This document shows positions 2,170 through 13,682 of a stretch of 64,000 nt of DNA, piece by piece. The position numbers and the translations under genes are program-made. The notes under the pieces were generated by a model, which worked only from the letters and a program-made list of their open reading frames with translations, did not search any database and was not told the origin of the DNA. Source of the DNA: Candidatus Nomurabacteria bacterium (GTDB lineage Bacteria; Patescibacteriota; Saccharimonadia; Saccharimonadales; JAGQNJ01); NCBI GenBank assembly GCA_023898625.1, contig CP060231.1, forward strand, positions 212,258 to 276,257, in the 5' to 3' direction. Each line of letters starts with the position of its first letter. The stretch's first letter is position 1.

Positions 2170-2631
2170 TTAGCGCCCGCTTCTAGAATATATAGTCGAA
2201 TCGATCTCGGCATCTTGCGGTAAATCACCAAACACGGACTTAATCATATCTAGGAACATCTGTGAGGGAATCCTTATTGTATTATCGTACGGAAATGTGT
2301 AGTCTGTCATGTAGCTCTCTACGATGTGCAATCCTTCGACCTCATCGAGCCGTCTTTCTATAGTAGACACTTCTCTTGGTCCTTTTGTTTGAGGATACCA
2401 CTCCAGGGTAAATGCGTCCTTGTCTGCTCGTTTGAACACTTGTCTTGACAAACCAAACTCACCTGTCTGCCGATTTTCGGCGACTTCAAACCTGATAGCT
2501 TCATCAAGACCCATGGTATCCAGCAATAACTTGCCATATTTTTGAACGTGATCAAAAACCTCTAGATCTCTTTGTCTTAACTGTTCGTTTGAAGAGTTTG
2601 TTTCCTTCTCTCTACTCCATAATTTCTTCAT
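2170..2631 (-). CDS. hypothetical protein (153 aa)
   Basis: Long ORF in the dominant coding direction with no motif I recognise. The alternative-frame ORF 2358..2555 is nested inside it and was judged spurious. Confidence 0.5.
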   Translation of the reverse strand: MKKLWSREKETNSSNEQLRQRDLEVFDHVQKYGKLLLDTMGLDEAIRFEVAENRQTGEFGLSRQVFKRADKDAFTLEWYPQTKGPREVSTIERRLDEVEGLHIVESYMTDYTFPYDNTIRIPSQMFLDMIKSVFGDLPQDAEIDSTIYSRSGR

Positions 2632-2680
2632 AGTGTGTAATGATAGTTCATTAAAGTAACATAAGCAAGCATAGGTATTT

Positions 2681-2754
2681 TGGTGCGGGATACGAGAATC
2701 AAACTCGTACCTCTTGCTTGGGAAGCAAGCGTACTATCACTATACTAATCCCGC
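2681..2754 (-). tRNA. tRNA-Gly (anticodon CCC), CCA encoded
   Basis: The reverse complement reads GCGGGAT TA GTAT AGTGATA GTAC G CTTGC TTCCCAA GCAAG AGGT ACGAG TTTGATT CTCGT ATCCCGC A CCA. This is a full 74-nt cloverleaf with anticodon loop TTCCCAA. Confidence 0.9.
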
Positions 2755-2756
2755 AG

Positions 2757-2832
2757 TGGAGCCACCTAGCAGGATCGAACTGCTGACCTACGCGTTACGA
2801 ATGCGTCGCTCTACCGACTGAGCTAAGGTGGC
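2757..2832 (-). tRNA. tRNA-Thr (anticodon CGT), CCA encoded
   Basis: The reverse complement reads GCCACCT TA GCTC AGTCGGTA GAGC G ACGCA TTCGTAA CGCGT AGGTC AGCAG TTCGATC CTGCT AGGTGGC T CCA. There is one A-C mismatch at the base of the anticodon stem. It lies 2 nt from tRNA-Gly, so the two are probably co-transcribed. Confidence 0.85.
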
Positions 2833-2905
2833 AATAACTACACTATTGTAACAGATTGCAATACTAAACATATTCTGATAAACTGCTATGGTATTTATTG
2901 GCCTT

Positions 2906-2982
2906 GGGCTCGTGGTGTAGAGGCCTAACATGCCTCCCTGTCACGGAGGAGATCGCCGGTTCGAATCCGGTCGAGCCCGCCA
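2906..2982 (+). tRNA. tRNA-Asp (anticodon GTC), CCA encoded
   Basis: GGGCTCG TG GTGT AGAGGCCTA ACAT G CCTCC CTGTCAC GGAGG AGATC GCCGG TTCGAAT CCGGT CGAGCCC G CCA, a 77-nt cloverleaf. Confidence 0.9.
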
Positions 2983-2995
2983 ATATCGCAGAATG

Positions 2996-3023
2996 AATCA
3001 TCCGTCTTCTAGGATGATTTTTT
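2996..3023 (+). terminator. rho-independent terminator after tRNA-Asp
   Basis: An 8-bp stem AATCATCC/GGATGATT (2996-3003 / 3012-3019) with an 8-nt loop, followed by TTTT. Confidence 0.6.
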
Positions 3024-3600
3024 ATTGTTCATTGTCTGGACGACACGCATACACGTGCAACGAAGGGATTCTTTGTACCTCGCTACCTTTATGTAACTGA
3101 ATCTCTTGATTATACACATCAAGCTCTATTGGCTCCCCACCAATATTCCCTCGCCAAACAGTAAGTTCTGGGGTACTCCTAGCTTCGTCCTTAATGGCTT
3201 CGACTCCAGAAATTAGATCATCCAGTAGTTTCTTTGTTCGTTCTGGTACGGAACCCCTAATCGAATGCGGATTACCAAATTCGGGATCTTCACCTTGCTC
3301 CATCAGTTCTTGTCTTCTATCTGGCTGAAGATACAACAAAGACATAAAAGGCCTACCCTTAATAATTGATGGTGCGCTCGTCGTATCGATCTGACTATCA
3401 TTATTAATCTCGCCAATAATTTTAAACTCGCTATATTCGAGTCCTGCTATTTGATTAAGCAACCTCCTATTGTATTCCTCAATCTCTTGATAATCTTCTT
3501 CTAGTTGTTCCTTAGACTGCGCATCAATAACATCAAACTGTTCCCACATAGCAGAGCTATGAGGATCTGGCATATTATCTTTATTTGAGCCTGAATCCAT
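3022..3600 (-). CDS. hypothetical acidic protein (192 aa)
   Basis: Long ORF preceded by a purine-rich SD (AGAGGGG) about 8 nt upstream of the ATG. It starts 20 nt downstream of the small ORF 3621..3800, which looks like an operon. No recognisable domain. Confidence 0.55.
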   Translation of the reverse strand: MDSGSNKDNMPDPHSSAMWEQFDVIDAQSKEQLEEDYQEIEEYNRRLLNQIAGLEYSEFKIIGEINNDSQIDTTSAPSIIKGRPFMSLLYLQPDRRQELMEQGEDPEFGNPHSIRGSVPERTKKLLDDLISGVEAIKDEARSTPELTVWRGNIGGEPIELDVYNQEIQLHKGSEVQRIPSLHVYACRPDNEQ

Positions 3601-3620
3601 AAATTACCCCTCTTTCTTAG

Positions 3621-3800
3621 TTAGTGTTTGGCCTTTGATGATAAATGCCAGCCATTACAAACAAGACATTTATACACTCTTCTAGGCTTCCCTAGAGTTT
3701 TGTTTTGATTAATACGTTTTAATGCCTCTTGTGCTGACGCGTCGTTGGAATAGCGAGTTTTATTCTTGCAGTTCTTCTTCTCTATGGAATTATTCGACAT
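3621..3800 (-). CDS. small basic Cys/His protein (59 aa), possible zinc-ribbon
   Basis: Not in the supplied track because it is under 60 aa. My translation is MSNNSIEKKNCKNKTRYSNDASAQEALKRINQNKTLGKPRRVYKCLVCNGWHLSSKAKH. It has C11 plus a C-x2-C-x3-H cluster at the C-terminus. A TATAAT box ends 8 nt before the ATG. Confidence 0.4.
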   Translation of the reverse strand: MSNNSIEKKNCKNKTRYSNDASAQEALKRINQNKTLGKPRRVYKCLVCNGWHLSSKAKH

Positions 3801-3824
3801 CTACCCAGATTATATAATGAAGTT

Positions 3825-3858
3825 AAAAAATCCTCATGATGTACTCTGAGGATTTTTT
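3825..3858 (-). terminator. rho-independent (bidirectional-looking) terminator after the RRM-protein gene
   Basis: Stem TCCTCA/TGAGGA (3831-3836 / 3847-3852) flanked by A6 (3825-3830) and T6 (3853-3858). On the minus strand the hairpin is followed by a U-run. Confidence 0.65.
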
Positions 3859-3878
3859 ATTGACATCAATATATTCTA

Positions 3879-4202
3879 CTATCGTTGTCTAAAAGAAGAG
3901 CTCTGATTGAAGTCCCCATTACCAGGGCGAGATCGATCATTGCGAGGACGATCCTCACGTGGACGAGCCTCATTTACCACAATCTTGCGTCCTCCAAGTT
4001 CACTACCATCTAAAGCCTTAATCGCTTCCTTTGCTTCGTCTGCTGATTCAAATTCAACAAAACCAAAACCTTTTGAGCGACCAGTATCTCTATCGGTAAT
4101 TACGTTGGCATATGATACCGTACCGTGTGTTGCAAATAAATCTTGCAATTCTTGTGTAGTTGTAGAGTACGGCAAACCACCAACATATAACTTACTAGCC
4201 AT
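3879..4202 (-). CDS. RRM-type RNA-binding protein with Arg-rich tail
   Basis: RNP-2 'LYVGGL' and RNP-1 'KGFGFVEF' motifs, 107 aa, with a C-terminal RPREDRPRNDRSRPG tail. Confidence 0.9.
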   Translation of the reverse strand: MASKLYVGGLPYSTTTQELQDLFATHGTVSYANVITDRDTGRSKGFGFVEFESADEAKEAIKALDGSELGGRKIVVNEARPREDRPRNDRSRPGNGDFNQSSSFRQR

Positions 4203-4316
4203 TAAGATTAGTTCCTTTCTATTAATCTTTCAGGTCGACCATCTTTACTCACTCACTAAACTAATGGCTTGTTAAGAATCCTGTCTAAATATCATACACT
4301 ATTATTGATTAATTTA

Positions 4317-5414
4317 CTAGTTATCCGATGGAGATGCTTGTTGGTCTGTCTGGGGTTCTGGCAAGCTAATGTAAGCTCTTGTTTTAGTTTGGTCCTTCCT
4401 ATCGTTAAGATATTGATTAATATCTTTGAAGTTAAACACAATGTGAGCAACCTTTGCTTTATCGCCATCCTGAAGCTCGATCAACTTATAGATTTCAAGT
4501 GAATTGCCCGTATTAACTATTCCTGAAACCTGACCTGGTTGTAGTTTAAAGATAGCATCGATAGTTTGTGGAGAAATATCTCTGTTAGATTTCTCGATTA
4601 AGAATCCATATTCTCCACCCTTGTCTTTTGTTGTTACTTCATCGGAATAAGTTTTCGCAACCTCTGCAAAATCCTTTCCATTGTTGATTTCTGCCAAGGC
4701 TGAATTTGCTCGCCCTTGAGTATCTACGTCAAGTGACGCGAGGACTTTTTGTTGTAGTAAATTACCATGAACATACCGTTTAAAGTCAGCCTCATCCCAC
4801 CCGAAATATTCCTTCAAGACATCATCTAAAACATCCTTGCTGCTACCAAGACGTTCCTGGTTGCGTAATAAAGTAATCTGATCCTGAACTTCTTGGTCAC
4901 TAACTGTAATCTTCTTTTCTTTTGCAATCTGTTTAATATACGCATCGTTGATTACTTTAGTTAATGAGCGGTTTTTTGCAACTATCAGTTGTTGCTTGCC
5001 GTAGTCACTATTAAAATCTAGTTTTTGCTGGTTTTCGTAATAATGCTGATACCTCCTTAACTCAAAAAGATAATTCTCATAAGCTATAAACTTATCGCCT
5101 TGCCTTGCAATAGGAAACGGAATTACTTGAGTAGCTTTATAAATAAATGTCGAGGTTGAGTGGAAACGATACAACGCCGTTATACAGTACGTAAAAAATA
5201 CGACAAACGTAACTAATACAATAGTAATCGTAAGTATTACAATCTTATGCTTTGAATGTTGCAAAGGATATATATATTTACGTGCACTTGATAACACTTC
5301 CTCTCGATGTTCAGCGACAGTATCATTTGTAATCTTAGGGATTTCCGAAGTCGCCAAAGAACCTGCCTTCTTCTTTAGTCTTGGTCGCCTAAACTTCTTC
5401 GAGATCTTCTTCAT
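4317..5414 (-). CDS. membrane-anchored parvulin-type peptidyl-prolyl isomerase (PrsA/SurA-like)
   Basis: An N-terminal basic segment and a TM helix, a SurA-N-like helical region, and a C-terminal parvulin block '...FAEVAKTYSDE...GGEYGFL...QPGQVSGIVNTGNSLEIYKL'. Confidence 0.75.
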   Translation of the reverse strand: MKKISKKFRRPRLKKKAGSLATSEIPKITNDTVAEHREEVLSSARKYIYPLQHSKHKIVILTITIVLVTFVVFFTYCITALYRFHSTSTFIYKATQVIPFPIARQGDKFIAYENYLFELRRYQHYYENQQKLDFNSDYGKQQLIVAKNRSLTKVINDAYIKQIAKEKKITVSDQEVQDQITLLRNQERLGSSKDVLDDVLKEYFGWDEADFKRYVHGNLLQQKVLASLDVDTQGRANSALAEINNGKDFAEVAKTYSDEVTTKDKGGEYGFLIEKSNRDISPQTIDAIFKLQPGQVSGIVNTGNSLEIYKLIELQDGDKAKVAHIVFNFKDINQYLNDRKDQTKTRAYISLPEPQTDQQASPSDN

Positions 5415-6724: not shown

Positions 6725-6802
6725 TATTCCTTTCGTATTATAGTTATTTTATTGTACAAAATATTGTATCTGTTGTCACCCTTAATGCCGTACAATATAA
6801 GT

Positions 6803-7726
6803 ATGAAATTCAGCAAAGCAAAAGATGAATTCCTAGAATACCTAGAGATTGAACAAGGACGTTCGTTAAAAACAATACACAATTACAACCATTATCTTAC
6901 GCGCATTGAAGATTATGCTGGAGATATTAATGTTAAAGATATAAATCCAGAATTTGTCCGTAAGTGGCGCTTGTGGCTAAATAGACTAGGCACAAATGTA
7001 AGTGATGAATTACAAAAAAACACCATTAATTACCACTTAATTGCGCTGAGAAGTTTTTTAAAATGGTGTACGAAACGCAATTATGATTCGATGCCAGCGG
7101 ATAAGATTGAACTTGCCAAAAGCAATAGAAACGAGGTTTCATTCTTATCAATCGATGAGTTGAATAAACTTTTTGCTCAGCCAAACACATCAACCCTACA
7201 GGGGTTGAGAGATCGTTCTATCCTAGAATTACTGTTTAGTAGTGGCTTACGCGTATCAGAACTCACAAACCTAAACAAGGAGCACATTAACCTTAAAACA
7301 AAAGAGTTTACTGTTCGAGGAAAAGGCCAGAAAGACCGACCAATATTTATTAGTGATAGCGCGTCAAGCTGGATAGACAAATACATAGAAACCAGGAATG
7401 ATACAATCCCTGCACTATTTATCGGGCACAGTAATAAAAAACCAAAGGTAGACAGAACTGGCGATTATTCTCGATTAACACCCAGAAGTATCCAAAGAAT
7501 GGTTTCTAAGTATGCTCTGCTGGCTGGAATAACCAAACATGTTTCACCGCACACTCTGAGACACAGCTTTGCTACGGACCTATTACGTAATGGCGCTGAT
7601 TTACGTAGCGTGCAAGCAATGTTAGGCCACAGCAATATTTCCACCACACAAATCTACACCCATGTAACAGATCCACACCTAAAGAATATTCATAAGAGAT
7701 TCCATTCTAAACAAAATAGACAGTAG
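6803..7726 (+). CDS. tyrosine recombinase, XerC/XerD family
   Basis: The catalytic region is 'HTLRHSFATDLLRNGADLRSVQAMLGHSNISTTQIYTHV'. I prefer the ATG at 6803 (MKFSKAKDEFLEYL...) over the TTG at 6752 used by the track. Confidence 0.85.
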   Translation: MKFSKAKDEFLEYLEIEQGRSLKTIHNYNHYLTRIEDYAGDINVKDINPEFVRKWRLWLNRLGTNVSDELQKNTINYHLIALRSFLKWCTKRNYDSMPADKIELAKSNRNEVSFLSIDELNKLFAQPNTSTLQGLRDRSILELLFSSGLRVSELTNLNKEHINLKTKEFTVRGKGQKDRPIFISDSASSWIDKYIETRNDTIPALFIGHSNKKPKVDRTGDYSRLTPRSIQRMVSKYALLAGITKHVSPHTLRHSFATDLLRNGADLRSVQAMLGHSNISTTQIYTHVTDPHLKNIHKRFHSKQNRQ

Positions 7727-7747
7727 TTATGGACGTTTAAATATACA

Positions 7748-11402: not shown

Positions 11403-12200
11403 CTAACCCATGAACAAAAAGGTTTTGGTATACCAATCTATCATCTGACTGCCAAATAAAAAAACAATTATTGTTGCAATTATCAACAGTGGACCAAATG
11501 GGATTTTAGACCGTGCATTCAATTTTTTACTAACCAGTAGTGGCAATACTAAAAATGTACCGATAACCGATGCCAAAAAAATCAACAAGAAAACATTAAT
11601 AATAGACCCTGCTATAAGCCCTAGTGCGTAAGACATCTTAACATCACCCCCGCCAATCCACCTGCCATCTGAAAACTGAAACAATACCCAGAAAATAGCA
11701 AAAAACACCAAACCAGACACAACTGACCAAAATAACCCTAGCCAACTGCTGTTTAAGATTGCCAATAAGGTAACCAAAATGCTAGCCAAAATAGTTAAGG
11801 GCAAGACCATCTTGTTGGGTAGCAACTTCCATTTAAGGTCATAGACAAGTAGTGCCATAAAGACTACCAAACAGCCCAGCCACGATATAAAGGCCAGCCA
11901 GCCTAGCAATGTTAGTGAGTATGGCCAAAAAGCATAAGACAATGCAAACAATAGCGCAGTAAATAACTCAACAGCAGGATATTGAGCCGATATAGGTTTT
12001 TTACAATAACGGCACTTGCCCCTCAAACTCAACCAGCTAAGCACTGGCACTAAGTCTTTAGCCCGTAAAACATGTTTGCAATTTGGACAAATAGAACGCT
12101 CGCTCACCCAGTTTTTACGCTTTTTGAACCGCCAAACGTAGGCATTAACAAAGCTACCAAAAATAAGCCCAAAAACAAATAAGATAAGCACAATCATCAC
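11403..12200 (-). CDS. pilD: prepilin peptidase / N-methyltransferase (A24 family)
   Basis: Zinc-binding 'CPNCKH...CRYCKKPISAQYPAVE', multiple TM helices, and 'GGGDVKM' containing a catalytic Asp. Confidence 0.9.
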   Translation of the reverse strand: MMIVLILFVFGLIFGSFVNAYVWRFKKRKNWVSERSICPNCKHVLRAKDLVPVLSWLSLRGKCRYCKKPISAQYPAVELFTALLFALSYAFWPYSLTLLGWLAFISWLGCLVVFMALLVYDLKWKLLPNKMVLPLTILASILVTLLAILNSSWLGLFWSVVSGLVFFAIFWVLFQFSDGRWIGGGDVKMSYALGLIAGSIINVFLLIFLASVIGTFLVLPLLVSKKLNARSKIPFGPLLIIATIIVFLFGSQMIDWYTKTFLFMG

Positions 12201-12220
12201 TAATATAGTACACTAACTTA

Positions 12221-12252
12221 CCCTTTTAAGAGGACTGTCCTCATAAAAAGGG
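12221..12252. repeat. near-perfect 32-bp palindrome carrying the REP core
   Basis: CCCTTTTAAGAGGACTGTCCTCATAAAAAGGG. Its reverse complement contains TTTTATGAGGACAGTCCTC, which matches the repeats at 12910-13055. Confidence 0.75.
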
Positions 12253-12260
12253 TTTTTGTG

Positions 12261-12884
12261 TTATAGTATAGTATTTGCCAGTTCGTACTTTATTTCGTCA
12301 AGCTTGTCCTTGTAATCCACGTAGTCTGCTAGAAATTTTTTGTATTCTTCCCTATCGTTGTTAAACATAGCCAAAACAGCATCTGGATGAACCCACTCTG
12401 CTTTTTGACCAGATAAATAGTACCCGATGCTACTGTAGGGTGTAGTCTGCCATTGCTTACGGTTGAGGTGTATATAGCGCGAGATATGCTCTACATATTG
12501 TTGGCTAGCTATTAAAGAAGCCTTATAACGACTCTCAAACAATGATCCAGTTCTGTTGTATTTGTTATTAAAGTAACGTGAGTAGCTACCCATTACGCCT
12601 CGCATAAGCTTCTGCATTGCGCCTTCTTCGTGCTGATAAAGTAATAAGTGAAAATGATTACGCATCAGGCAGTAGCATAGTAAATCCAAACGACCATACA
12701 GATGTGGATATGATACCTGATGTTTATCGAGGGTTGGTTTTTTTGATAAGTAGCGCGCAAAAAGTTTTGTGAAATAATTGTAATCAGCGTCATCAATGAA
12801 AATTTCTGATTTGCTGTGCCCTCGCGCATAGACGTGATAGTAACCGTCAGCTATATCGATTTTAATAACGTTACGGCTTGGCAT
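12261..12884 (-). CDS. REP-associated tyrosine transposase (RAYT; IS200/IS605 Y1 family)
   Basis: 'YHVYARG', the HUH motif 'NHFHLLL', and 'GSLFESRYKA' carrying the catalytic-Tyr region. 207 aa. Confidence 0.8.
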   Translation of the reverse strand: MPSRNVIKIDIADGYYHVYARGHSKSEIFIDDADYNYFTKLFARYLSKKPTLDKHQVSYPHLYGRLDLLCYCLMRNHFHLLLYQHEEGAMQKLMRGVMGSYSRYFNNKYNRTGSLFESRYKASLIASQQYVEHISRYIHLNRKQWQTTPYSSIGYYLSGQKAEWVHPDAVLAMFNNDREEYKKFLADYVDYKDKLDEIKYELANTIL

Positions 12885-12909
12885 GTCAGTAATGATAGCT
12901 CAGTAAAAT

Positions 12910-13055
12910 ATATTATGCAATCTTTTGTACTTTTATGAGGAACGTCCTCCAGAAAGATATTATGCAATCTTTTGTACTTTTGTGAGGAACGTCCTCCTGA
13001 AATTTATCGATATTATGCAATCTTTTGTACTTTTATGAGGAACGTCCTCCAGAAA
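12910..13055. repeat. three tandem 46-bp REP-like units
   Basis: Units lie at 12910-12955, 12957-13002 and 13010-13055. Each reads ATATTATGCAATCTTTTGTACTTTT(A/G)TGAGGAACGTCCTCC(A/T)GAAA. Each carries the hairpin GAGGA-ACG-TCCTC. Spacers are 1 and 7 bp. Confidence 0.9.
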
Positions 13056-13096
13056 AGTATCATGGGTTTTGGTGGTGGTTTATAGGGGCAGTTTGT

Positions 13097-13139
13097 GTGA
13101 AGGGTGTAGCTATTTTGTGAAAGGTGTGGCTATTTTGTG
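13097..13139. repeat. tandem 20-bp direct repeat
   Basis: GTGAAGGGTGTAGCTATTTT / GTGAAAGGTGTGGCTATTTT, followed by a partial third GTGG. It lies between the pilA terminator and the REP array. Confidence 0.7.
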
Positions 13140-13144
13140 GCAAA

Positions 13145-13170
13145 GAAAAAACGGGGTTTCCCCCGTTTTC
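13145..13170 (-). terminator. rho-independent terminator of pilA
   Basis: Stem ACGGGG/CCCCGT (13151-13156 / 13160-13165) with loop TTT, flanked by an A-run and a T-run. On the minus strand the hairpin is followed by TTTTTT. It starts 18 nt downstream of the pilA stop. Confidence 0.85.
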
Positions 13171-13187
13171 TCAGAATACAATGAGCT

Positions 13188-13682
13188 TTAGCCTGCACTC
13201 ACACATTGCGTGGTCGAACCAGAACCTGAATTTTCAGAATTAAACAGCACTACACCACCTCTAGGAGCGTATGATACCATACCGGCCATATTTGTTGCAG
13301 AATATCCTAGAGTTGGATCACATTTTGCATTAACTATAACTACAACTGAATCAGTATCCGCGGGCGCAGCACCAGGATTAGCCGAAGAACTGGTTAACGA
13401 ACGGATTGTTACTCCTGACGTCTTATAAAAACCCAATTTAGCATTATCTGTTACATTTGCTGCCGTGGTAGGCGATGATCCACCGTGATTGTTGACATAC
13501 TCTGAGTACGCACTAGCCAATGCGGCAGAATCATTTTTTCGTTGCGTGTTGCGTGAGTTCCGTTGTAGTGCAGGTATTGCCAAGAACACTATTAGTAGTA
13601 TTAAACCTGCAATGGCAAGCACAATCAAAACTTCGATTATAGTGAAGCCTTCTTCTCTTTTAGTTTTATATTTTTGTAACAT
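13188..13682 (-). CDS. pilA: major type IV pilin
   Basis: 'MLQKYKTKREEG/FTIIEVLIVLAIAGLILLIVFLAIPALQRN' is a class III signal with E+5. The protein is 164 aa with a C-terminal Cys pair (C...C). An SD AAGGGGG precedes it, and it has its own promoter and terminator. Confidence 0.85.
   Translation of the reverse strand: MLQKYKTKREEGFTIIEVLIVLAIAGLILLIVFLAIPALQRNSRNTQRKNDSAALASAYSEYVNNHGGSSPTTAANVTDNAKLGFYKTSGVTIRSLTSSSANPGAAPADTDSVVVIVNAKCDPTLGYSATNMAGMVSYAPRGGVVLFNSENSGSGSTTQCVSAG

Follow-up and report, generated by a model that had tools for sequence, protein, structure and literature searches.

A Y1 HUH gene bracketed by local palindromes between pilA and pilD of a Saccharibacteria-like genome is probably a TIRtron-type cassette

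One branch of the Y1 HUH tyrosine enzymes is known under several names: subclass 2.1 of TnpA_Y1 (PMC6006769), the TIRYT proteins of the TIRtrons (PMC3733652) and Group 1 of the RAYTs (Bertels et al. 2017, PMC5581495). Subclass 2.1 is said to be without structures that resemble repetitive extragenic palindromes (REP) (Quentin et al., PMC6006769). Two other described systems can be compared with this branch: the REPtron, represented by TnpA_REP of Escherichia coli (PDB 4ER8; subclasses 2.2 and 2.5), and the insertion sequences (IS) of the IS200/IS605 group, represented by the TnpA proteins of IS608 and ISDra2. The element considered here is a Y1 gene with flanking palindromes, located between pilA and pilD in the type IV pilus (T4P) locus of a Candidatus Nomurabacteria bacterium. 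It lies in a stretch of 64,000 nucleotides (nt) of contig CP060231.1, referred to as the window, which makes up 6.8% of the 939,581-bp genome. The cassette is best described as a TIRtron with a strictly local palindrome pair, the upstream copy of which is amplified to three units. We consider it probable that the locus is a TIRtron-type cassette, in which a single-copy class-2 Y1 HUH enzyme of the TIRYT branch (similar to TnpA_Y1 subclass 2.1) is bracketed by its own palindromic sites. The TIRtron kind is already known, and what is new is a member spread across the Candidate Phyla Radiation (CPR); a literature search for RAYT-like genes in Patescibacteria found no paper.

The Y1 gene occupies positions 12261..12884 of the minus strand and encodes 207 amino acids (aa), and a Pfam scan of the protein gives Y1_Tnp as the sole domain match (E 1.1e-10), in agreement with the Y1 HUH transposase named in the initial annotation. 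The HUH motif corresponds to N76-H77-F78-H79 and the YSS serine motif to residues 150-152. In alignments of 25 and of 78 homologs, H77 and H79 are the same in all sequences, and N76 and F78 in nearly all. The catalytic tyrosine is Y137, within RYIHLN; the stretch Y137-I-H-L-N is conserved in the same alignments, with Y137, H139 and N141 invariant, and the next residue is proline in most homologs and arginine in the window lineage. Y137 is aligned, in a weak profile alignment, with the catalytic Y132 of ISDra2 TnpA, and a tyrosine motif of the form 'Y---NP' characterises class 2 (Quentin et al. 2018, PMC6006769, Table 1). For these reasons the segment SLFESRYKA, which had been taken as the signature of the enzyme, is assigned to the W/F-[EQ] motif region and not to the catalytic tyrosine. 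The ratio of nonsynonymous to synonymous substitution rates (dN/dS) of the gene is 0.08. Conservation of this kind indicates that the Y1 gene is catalytically intact and under strong purifying selection. Proteins identical to it have been deposited as 'transposase' from metagenome-assembled genomes of Ca. Nomurabacteria (USN95752.1) and Ca. Saccharibacteria (MCA9343578.1), which, together with the genome size of ~0.94 Mb, bears out the CPR-like character ascribed to the host.

The placement in the TIRYT branch is based on a hidden Markov model (HMM; A2) built on the 78-sequence family alignment, with E values calculated with -Z 1000. Applied to published TIRYT sequences (Di Nocera et al. 2013, PMC3733652, Additional file 5), the model scores 72-91 bits (E ~1e-21 to 6e-27) on tkm_1558, cps_4446, sml_4509, pca_3049, gbm_2474 and dau_2153. 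On the classical RAYTs it gives 3.1 bits for E. coli (b228), 12 for S. maltophilia and 28 for P. fluorescens. The motif set NH[YF]H / F[EQ] / Y[IV]HLNP / SS fits subclass 2.1 (PMC6006769, Table 1), and the window family and the TIRYTs can be aligned from MP.R..(Y)HV..RG via CLM.NH.HLL, G.L(W/F)E.RYK and Y-I-x-L-N-P to (W/Y)SS. The likeness extends to the repeats, which in both cases are inverted, partly self-complementary, placed at fixed distances from the gene, usually undispersed and low in copy number. The window family differs from the TIRYTs by an insertion of ~15 aa after helix A, the window lineage by an arginine in place of the proline of Y---NP, and the host belongs to CPR/Saccharibacteria, a group unsampled in the TIRYT surveys.

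The AlphaFold2 model of the Y1 protein (pLDDT 92.9) has a tail of short helices and one long helix (178-204), and the chain stops 70 aa past the catalytic tyrosine. In a fold search against the PDB, 4er8_A, the complex of E. coli RAYT with REP, ranks first (E 7e-7), and the TnpA proteins of ISDra2 and IS608 come next. Sequence searches of the PDB gave no match at E<=1 with the family profile A1, and ISDra2 alone, with E 0.5, with the profile A2.

Upstream of the Y1 gene, three palindrome units form a tandem array at 12905..13064 (Tandem Repeats Finder: period 47, 3.3 copies, 84% matches). Each unit contains GAGGA-ACG-TCCTC (12937-12949, 12984-12996 and 13037-13049), as had been annotated, and each also holds a -10-like CATAAT box; the uniform length of 46 bp given at that time did not hold, as the start-to-start spacings are 47 and 53 nt. 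The downstream cognate palindrome is a near-perfect element of 32 nt at 12221..12252, CCCTTTTAAGAGGACTGTCCTCATAAAAAGGG, which starts 9 nt past the Y1 stop codon and has its centre 25 nt past it. Its stem is two-tier, CCCTTTT / GAGGAC-N-GTCCTC / AAAAGGG. The 19-mer TTTTATGAGGAMMGTCCTC matches this element with 0 mismatches on the minus strand and with 2 on the plus strand; the inverted orientation described earlier does exist, yet an element so close to a perfect palindrome defines it only weakly. The window contains this shared 19-mer 5 times, each time at the Y1 gene; the number expected by chance is 0.06. Folded as single-stranded DNA (ssDNA), the palindromes reach -4 to -8 kcal/mol (z -2.2 to -3.9), the downstream one -7.5 to -7.9 kcal/mol (z about -3), and the predicted hairpins are two-tier, with an outer stem of A/T, then an internal loop and the GAGGA inner stem. 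An Rfam search of the cassette region gave no RNA family match.

The number of array units depends on the strain. One unit is present in L013, L014, L015 and L103 (numbers with L denote the loci of relatives), ~2.3 in L006 and L007, and three in the window. Six independent Logan contigs (L004, L005, L008-L011) end at one base within the repeat unit, 55 nt upstream of the Y1 ATG. These ends were considered as a sign of dispersed repeats and rejected, since the tandem array, with its varying number of copies, explains them as an assembly artefact. A second, strain-specific tandem duplication is located at 13096-13139, between the pilA terminator and the hairpins of the array: its 20-nt unit TGTGAAAGGTGTAGCTATTT is present in 2.2 copies, and in other strains in one copy.

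The pairing of the gene with its palindromes recurs throughout the family. The search for Y1 homologs returned 2873 sequences, and among the top 120 by score, those outside the cluster to which the window belongs have 55-77% identity; 80 homologous loci were fetched from metagenomes, and further loci were obtained by exact-protein look-ups. Palindromes that share the core RRGGWC-N-GWCCYY flank the gene on both sides at ~75 loci, with variants including GAGGACAGTCCTC, GAAGGACGGACCTTC, GAGAACGGTTCTC and CAAGGTCCGTCCTTG. The palindrome centres lie at ~-40 from the ATG upstream (-59 in the window lineage) and at ~+25 after the stop codon downstream. Where both palindromes are present (28 loci), the copy upstream of the gene and the one downstream agree at 18.2/19 positions within a locus and at 12.4/19 between loci, and the pairs are inverted in 20 cases and direct in 8. 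Stem differences between lineages are paired changes, and the two copies inside one locus match. Such concerted evolution of both copies is expected if a single protein must recognise both of them. The palindromes look like the cognate sites of the Y1 protein.

That the palindromes are instead ordinary regulatory or terminator elements of pil operons, unrelated to the Y1 protein, is highly improbable. Their promoter and terminator positions and A/T-rich outer stems would suit such a role. However, the palindrome pair accompanies the gene at fixed offsets in every genomic context, changes in one copy go along with changes in the other and with the lineage of the protein, and the palindromes are missing from the relatives that lack the cassette.

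Extra tandem units beside the gene are found in unrelated family members as well (L027, L032, L046/L050, L066, L080 and L101). In L016, the upstream palindrome has a second copy, ~330 nt farther from the gene. Among close relatives, the asymmetric centre of the palindrome (ACGGA or TCCGT) flips, usually in both flanking copies together; examples are L043 and L056 compared to L052, L061 and L070, which share the same genomic context, as well as L053 and L068. A simple inversion of the gene segment cannot produce such a flip. Two loci have tandem diverged Y1 paralogs, L037 at 2612-4376 (48% identity to the window protein) and L060 at 401-1292 (32%), with extra palindrome copies in each of these regions.

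The lack of dispersed copies in the sequence at hand separates the locus from the classical REP systems. Within the window, the only 14-mers with at least three copies are those of the array, and a search for the palindrome core with at most one mismatch found nothing elsewhere but one chance match in a coding sequence at 3944. When the own core of each locus (at most one mismatch) was searched in ~434 kb of relatives' flanks, more than 400 nt away from the gene, only L028 and L060 gave copies; in L028 there are two, located 1.2 kb upstream of the gene. A contig scan of GTDB representatives, the source genome not being among them, for TTTTATGAGGAMMGTCCTC gave only three unrelated chance matches. 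The GT[AG]G motif is present beside the stems neither in the window units nor in the 81 family palindromes. The sequence at hand shows no REP population.

The initial annotation had described the locus as a classical REP/RAYT element, that is, a REPtron, in which the Y1 enzyme maintains a genome-wide REP/REPIN population and the flanking units are its local members. A part of this description stands: the Y1 gene is intact, no TnpB adjoins it, cognate palindromes bracket it, and the layout is REPtron-like, with a single gene between palindromic units that are mostly inverted around it and locally clustered, and with 'stem-bulge-stem' hairpins. The Y1 HUH fold, with E. coli RAYT as the best PDB fold match, and the name 'REP element-mobilizing transposase RayT' given to some homologs by JGI are in line with it. 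The dispersal did not hold up, as no palindrome copy lies elsewhere in the window and the distant copies in ~434 kb of relatives' flanks are those of L028 and L060; the GTAG head is absent. Sequence similarity to the REPtron enzymes is insignificant: NCBIfam REP_Tyr_transpos (NF047646) gives 33.7 bits on the Y1 protein, far under its cutoff of 80, the A2 score on E. coli RAYT is only 3 bits, compared to 72-91 on the TIRYTs, and the A1 profile finds no PDB match at E<=1. This makes the REPtron quite unlikely as a description of the locus.

The comparison of relatives at the pilA-pilD junction, which had been proposed as a check, revealed both the presence and the absence of the cassette. The order pilA-Y1-pilD is found in L103, L020, and L016 together with L025, the PilC proteins of which are 86%, 80% and 65% identical to that of the window. 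The cassette is absent from L102, the closest non-conspecific relative (PilC 96%, PilD 86%), and from L104 and L105, where 76-149 nt separate the pilA terminator from pilD; the palindromes are absent from these cassette-free relatives too. In the global alignment with L102, homology is limited to the terminator plus CTTTGCCATAA and starts again from the pilD -10 box, and the ~80 nt in between are unrelated; for this reason neither a clean excision footprint nor a cassette remnant can be claimed in L102.

Where the cassette is present, its history differs from that of the flanking genes. The window Y1 protein is 77% identical to that of L016 and 66% to that of L020, yet PilC, PilT and PilD put L020 nearer. 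Between the window and L103, the Y1 gene has a synonymous divergence (dS) of 0.39 and a third-position identity of 0.83, whereas pilT, pilC, pilD and a minor pilin gene have dS of 2.2-2.8 and third-position identity of ~0.5. The dS of Y1 is far below that of the flanking pil genes, and therefore the exchange of the cassette is much younger than the divergence of the genomes. The tract of high identity covers the pilA terminator, the spacer (~88% apart from an indel), Y1 and the downstream palindrome, and fades in codons 1-40 of pilD. It is most simply explained if a tract of ~1 kb, which reaches into the first 20-40 codons of pilD, was exchanged via homologous recombination in the flanking pil DNA.

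These distributions also bear on the possibility that a conventional IS200/IS605 element (tnpA-only, of the IS200 type), whole or as a fragment, has recently entered the space between pilA and pilD. The Y1_Tnp match, the HUH and tyrosine core in which Y137 aligns with Y132 of ISDra2, the subterminal hairpins at both ends as presumed recognition sites, the presence/absence polymorphism among relatives and the ~20 genomic contexts of the family would all agree with such an origin. However, the tyrosine motif is of class 2, Y---N(P), instead of the class-1 Y---Q, the protein has an extra C-terminal tail, and the hairpins are mostly inverted and not direct. The position is also occupied in lineages down to 65% PilC identity, and the exchanged tract passes the hairpins into pilD. 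The neighbours of the Y1 gene are pilA and pilD, with no TnpB adjoining and one Y1 copy in the window, and searches of viral contigs, PHROGs and PADLOC found no relatives of the protein. A conventional IS fragment was what the initial annotation expected if the repeat had no further copies and the transposase was an ordinary IS200/IS605 TnpA with TnpB; further copies are indeed missing from the window, but the protein falls in the TIRYT branch. The insertion of a conventional IS is thus very unlikely.

The neighbouring pilin gene forms another mosaic. The 3′ half of pilA (13169-13509) constitutes an allelic block of its own, which differs even among strains with an identical Y1 protein; in such strains the pilins have 161, 164 or 196 aa, and homology breaks at ~codon 58 of pilA and resumes at 13168. 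The hairpin array was considered as the boundary of the pilA alleles and rejected, as the boundary is the terminator, at 13168. The allelic 3′ half of pilA, the presence or absence of the cassette and the discordant dS values support the earlier proposal of a recombination-prone site, and the pilC-pilA-pilD stretch seems to collect accessory inserts.

In the wider family, ~20 distinct genomic contexts were recognised by clustering of neighbours. One of them, on at least 12 contigs, is a second T4P-adjacent arrangement, in which the Y1 gene is transcribed away from a paralogous pilB-pilC-pilA operon and has recA and recX downstream of it (L047, L053, L069, L079, L083, L085, L086, L088, L091, L092, L094 and L097; an example is L092, 2520-6618 and downstream). 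There, the upstream palindrome lies in the shared promoter region of ~100 nt. Another common context has an ATP-cone protein / pyridine-nucleotide-disulphide oxidoreductase upstream and TilS downstream. T4P adjacency in 2 of the ~20 contexts corresponds to P ~0.06 if ~2% of sites are T4P-adjacent, a rate estimated by ourselves, with contexts that are phylogenetically non-independent; the association of the family with T4P is suggestive and short of significance.

Two arrangements beside pilus genes, pilA-Y1-pilD and the one with pilB, recA and recX, together with the hypervariable pilA 3′ half that adjoins the cassette, the invariant catalytic residues and the low dN/dS, would fit a domesticated ssDNA nuclease tied to the pilus, DNA uptake or recombination. 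Such an enzyme could, for example, nick the hairpins to stimulate exchange of pilin alleles or process incoming ssDNA. This explanation is unlikely: the closest relative, L102, retains the whole T4P locus without the cassette, most contexts are not pilus-related, as in the case of ATP-cone/oxidoreductase/TilS, the adjacency has the P value given above, and the variation of pilA ends at the terminator and not at the hairpins. In a more specific form, as a ssDNA nickase recruited by the host, Y1 would act at its palindromes and thereby promote recombination, or the processing of transforming DNA, at pilus and recombination loci; this form, and with it a functional link to DNA transactions mediated by the pilus or RecA, is judged rather improbable. 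If true, it would explain the residence of the gene beside pilA/pilD and pilB/recA/recX in Saccharibacteria-like genomes, as well as the adjacent mosaic of pilin alleles.

For the TIRtron-type cassette, the following mechanism can be proposed. The Y1 protein would bind the palindromes as ssDNA hairpins, and cut and rejoin the DNA there, like RAYT and the IS608 TnpA. As the upstream palindrome lies over the -35 region of the gene's own promoter, this binding would autoregulate the Y1 gene. The strain-variable array of 1-3 copies would arise when the unit of hairpin and promoter is duplicated locally, through slippage or HUH cut-and-join; in the latter case, cleavage would occur near the junction of ...CATAATAT with the following C. 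The spread among related genomes would take place chiefly by homologous recombination of the flanking pil DNA, and moves to new sites would be rare, with ~20 contexts across the family.

Several observations weigh against this interpretation. The exchanged tract exceeds the unit formed by the gene and its two terminal inverted repeats (TIR), so the window case provides no direct evidence of transposition. The core of the window family is RRGGWC-N-GWCCYY and not the TIR consensus GGGGWSAS of the TIRtrons, which has 0 exact matches in the 81 palindromes; with one mismatch it is found in 22/81, compared to 4% of shuffles, the window downstream arm GAGGACAG matches it at 7/8 positions, and 'some' of the published TIRs only share the motif. 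The window protein, with its 207 aa, is shorter than the TIRYTs, and the long C-terminal domain of subclass 2.1, similar to a helix-turn-helix (DnaA_C / HTH_23 / HTH_28), is missing, as Pfam gives Y1_Tnp only. Zero extra copies in ~63 kb would allow up to ~45 copies genome-wide (95% Poisson bound), and the family-wide density of distant palindrome copies is far below that bound. Lastly, perfect odd-centred palindromes could equally be operator sites in double-stranded DNA, and binding and cutting by Y1 are predicted activities.

As a TIRtron-type cassette, the locus adds the ultra-small genomes of CPR to the range of the TIRYT/RAYT-Group-1 branch of HUH tyrosine enzymes, with a large and well-conserved subfamily. 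In contrast to the account of subclass 2.1 in PMC6006769, this branch does carry cognate palindromes, present at fixed offsets as a strictly local pair and without a genomic population. The matched palindrome pairs of many lineages form a ready covariation set for recognition between protein and hairpin. The pilA-pilD spacer of Saccharibacteria is a recombination mosaic of two blocks, one with the pilin allele and one with the Y1 cassette, which lineages gain, lose and swap, and the pilus operon architecture does not need the cassette.

The order of the pilus locus is pilB-pilT-pilC-pilA-[Y1]-pilD-minor-pilin. Pfam identifies a pilin with the N_methyl motif (pilA) at 13188-13682 and a prepilin peptidase A24 (pilD) at 11403-12200, which confirms the location given for the cassette. 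A putative Y1 promoter is located in the gene-proximal unit, at 12912..12939 of the minus strand, with a -35-like CTCATA (12939..12934) and a -10 CATAAT (12917..12912), both read from the sequence; the -35-like box overlaps the 3′ arm of the gene-proximal hairpin. A promoter scan flagged a similar layout in the middle unit (CTCACA-16-CATAAT), and L103, L016 and L020 have retained the (T/C)ATAAT box.

The intrinsic terminator of pilA, an inverted repeat at 13145..13172 of the minus strand (AAAACGGGGGAAACCCCGTTTTTT), lies outside the cassette, forms the left end of the exchanged tract and is kept in strains with and without the cassette. Before pilD, at 12195..12210 of the minus strand, a -10-like TACTAT box (12210..12205) is located 7 nt ahead of the pilD ATG (12197). 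A TACTAT, TATTAT or TATGAT box, 7-8 nt before this ATG, occurs in L102, L104 and L105, which have no cassette, and in L103, which has one. This suggests that the pilD mRNA is leaderless and independent of the cassette, and the start of pilD is probably the ATG at 12197 instead of the GTG at 12200. The initial annotation had proposed that the element insulates pilD from pilA read-through; such a function is not needed, because the terminator and the pilD -10 box exist with or without the cassette, and the separation of pilA from pilD does not depend on it. Like the upstream palindrome at the putative Y1 promoter, the downstream one extends over a -35 zone, in this case that of the putative pilD promoter, and these two overlaps may affect the transcription of Y1 and pilD.

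Other genes of the locus vary in their distribution. A 74-aa 23S_rRNA_IVP (PF05635) gene is present between pilC and pilA in L016 (4689-4913) and L018 (4378-4602), in a 76%-identity relative. At the distal end of the pilus locus, a XerC/D-like tyrosine recombinase with Phage_integrase and SAM domains is encoded at window positions ~6800-7730 of the plus strand, mapped from L004 5214-6137. All relatives have conserved it, whether they carry the Y1 cassette or lack it, and it is probably a housekeeping Xer.

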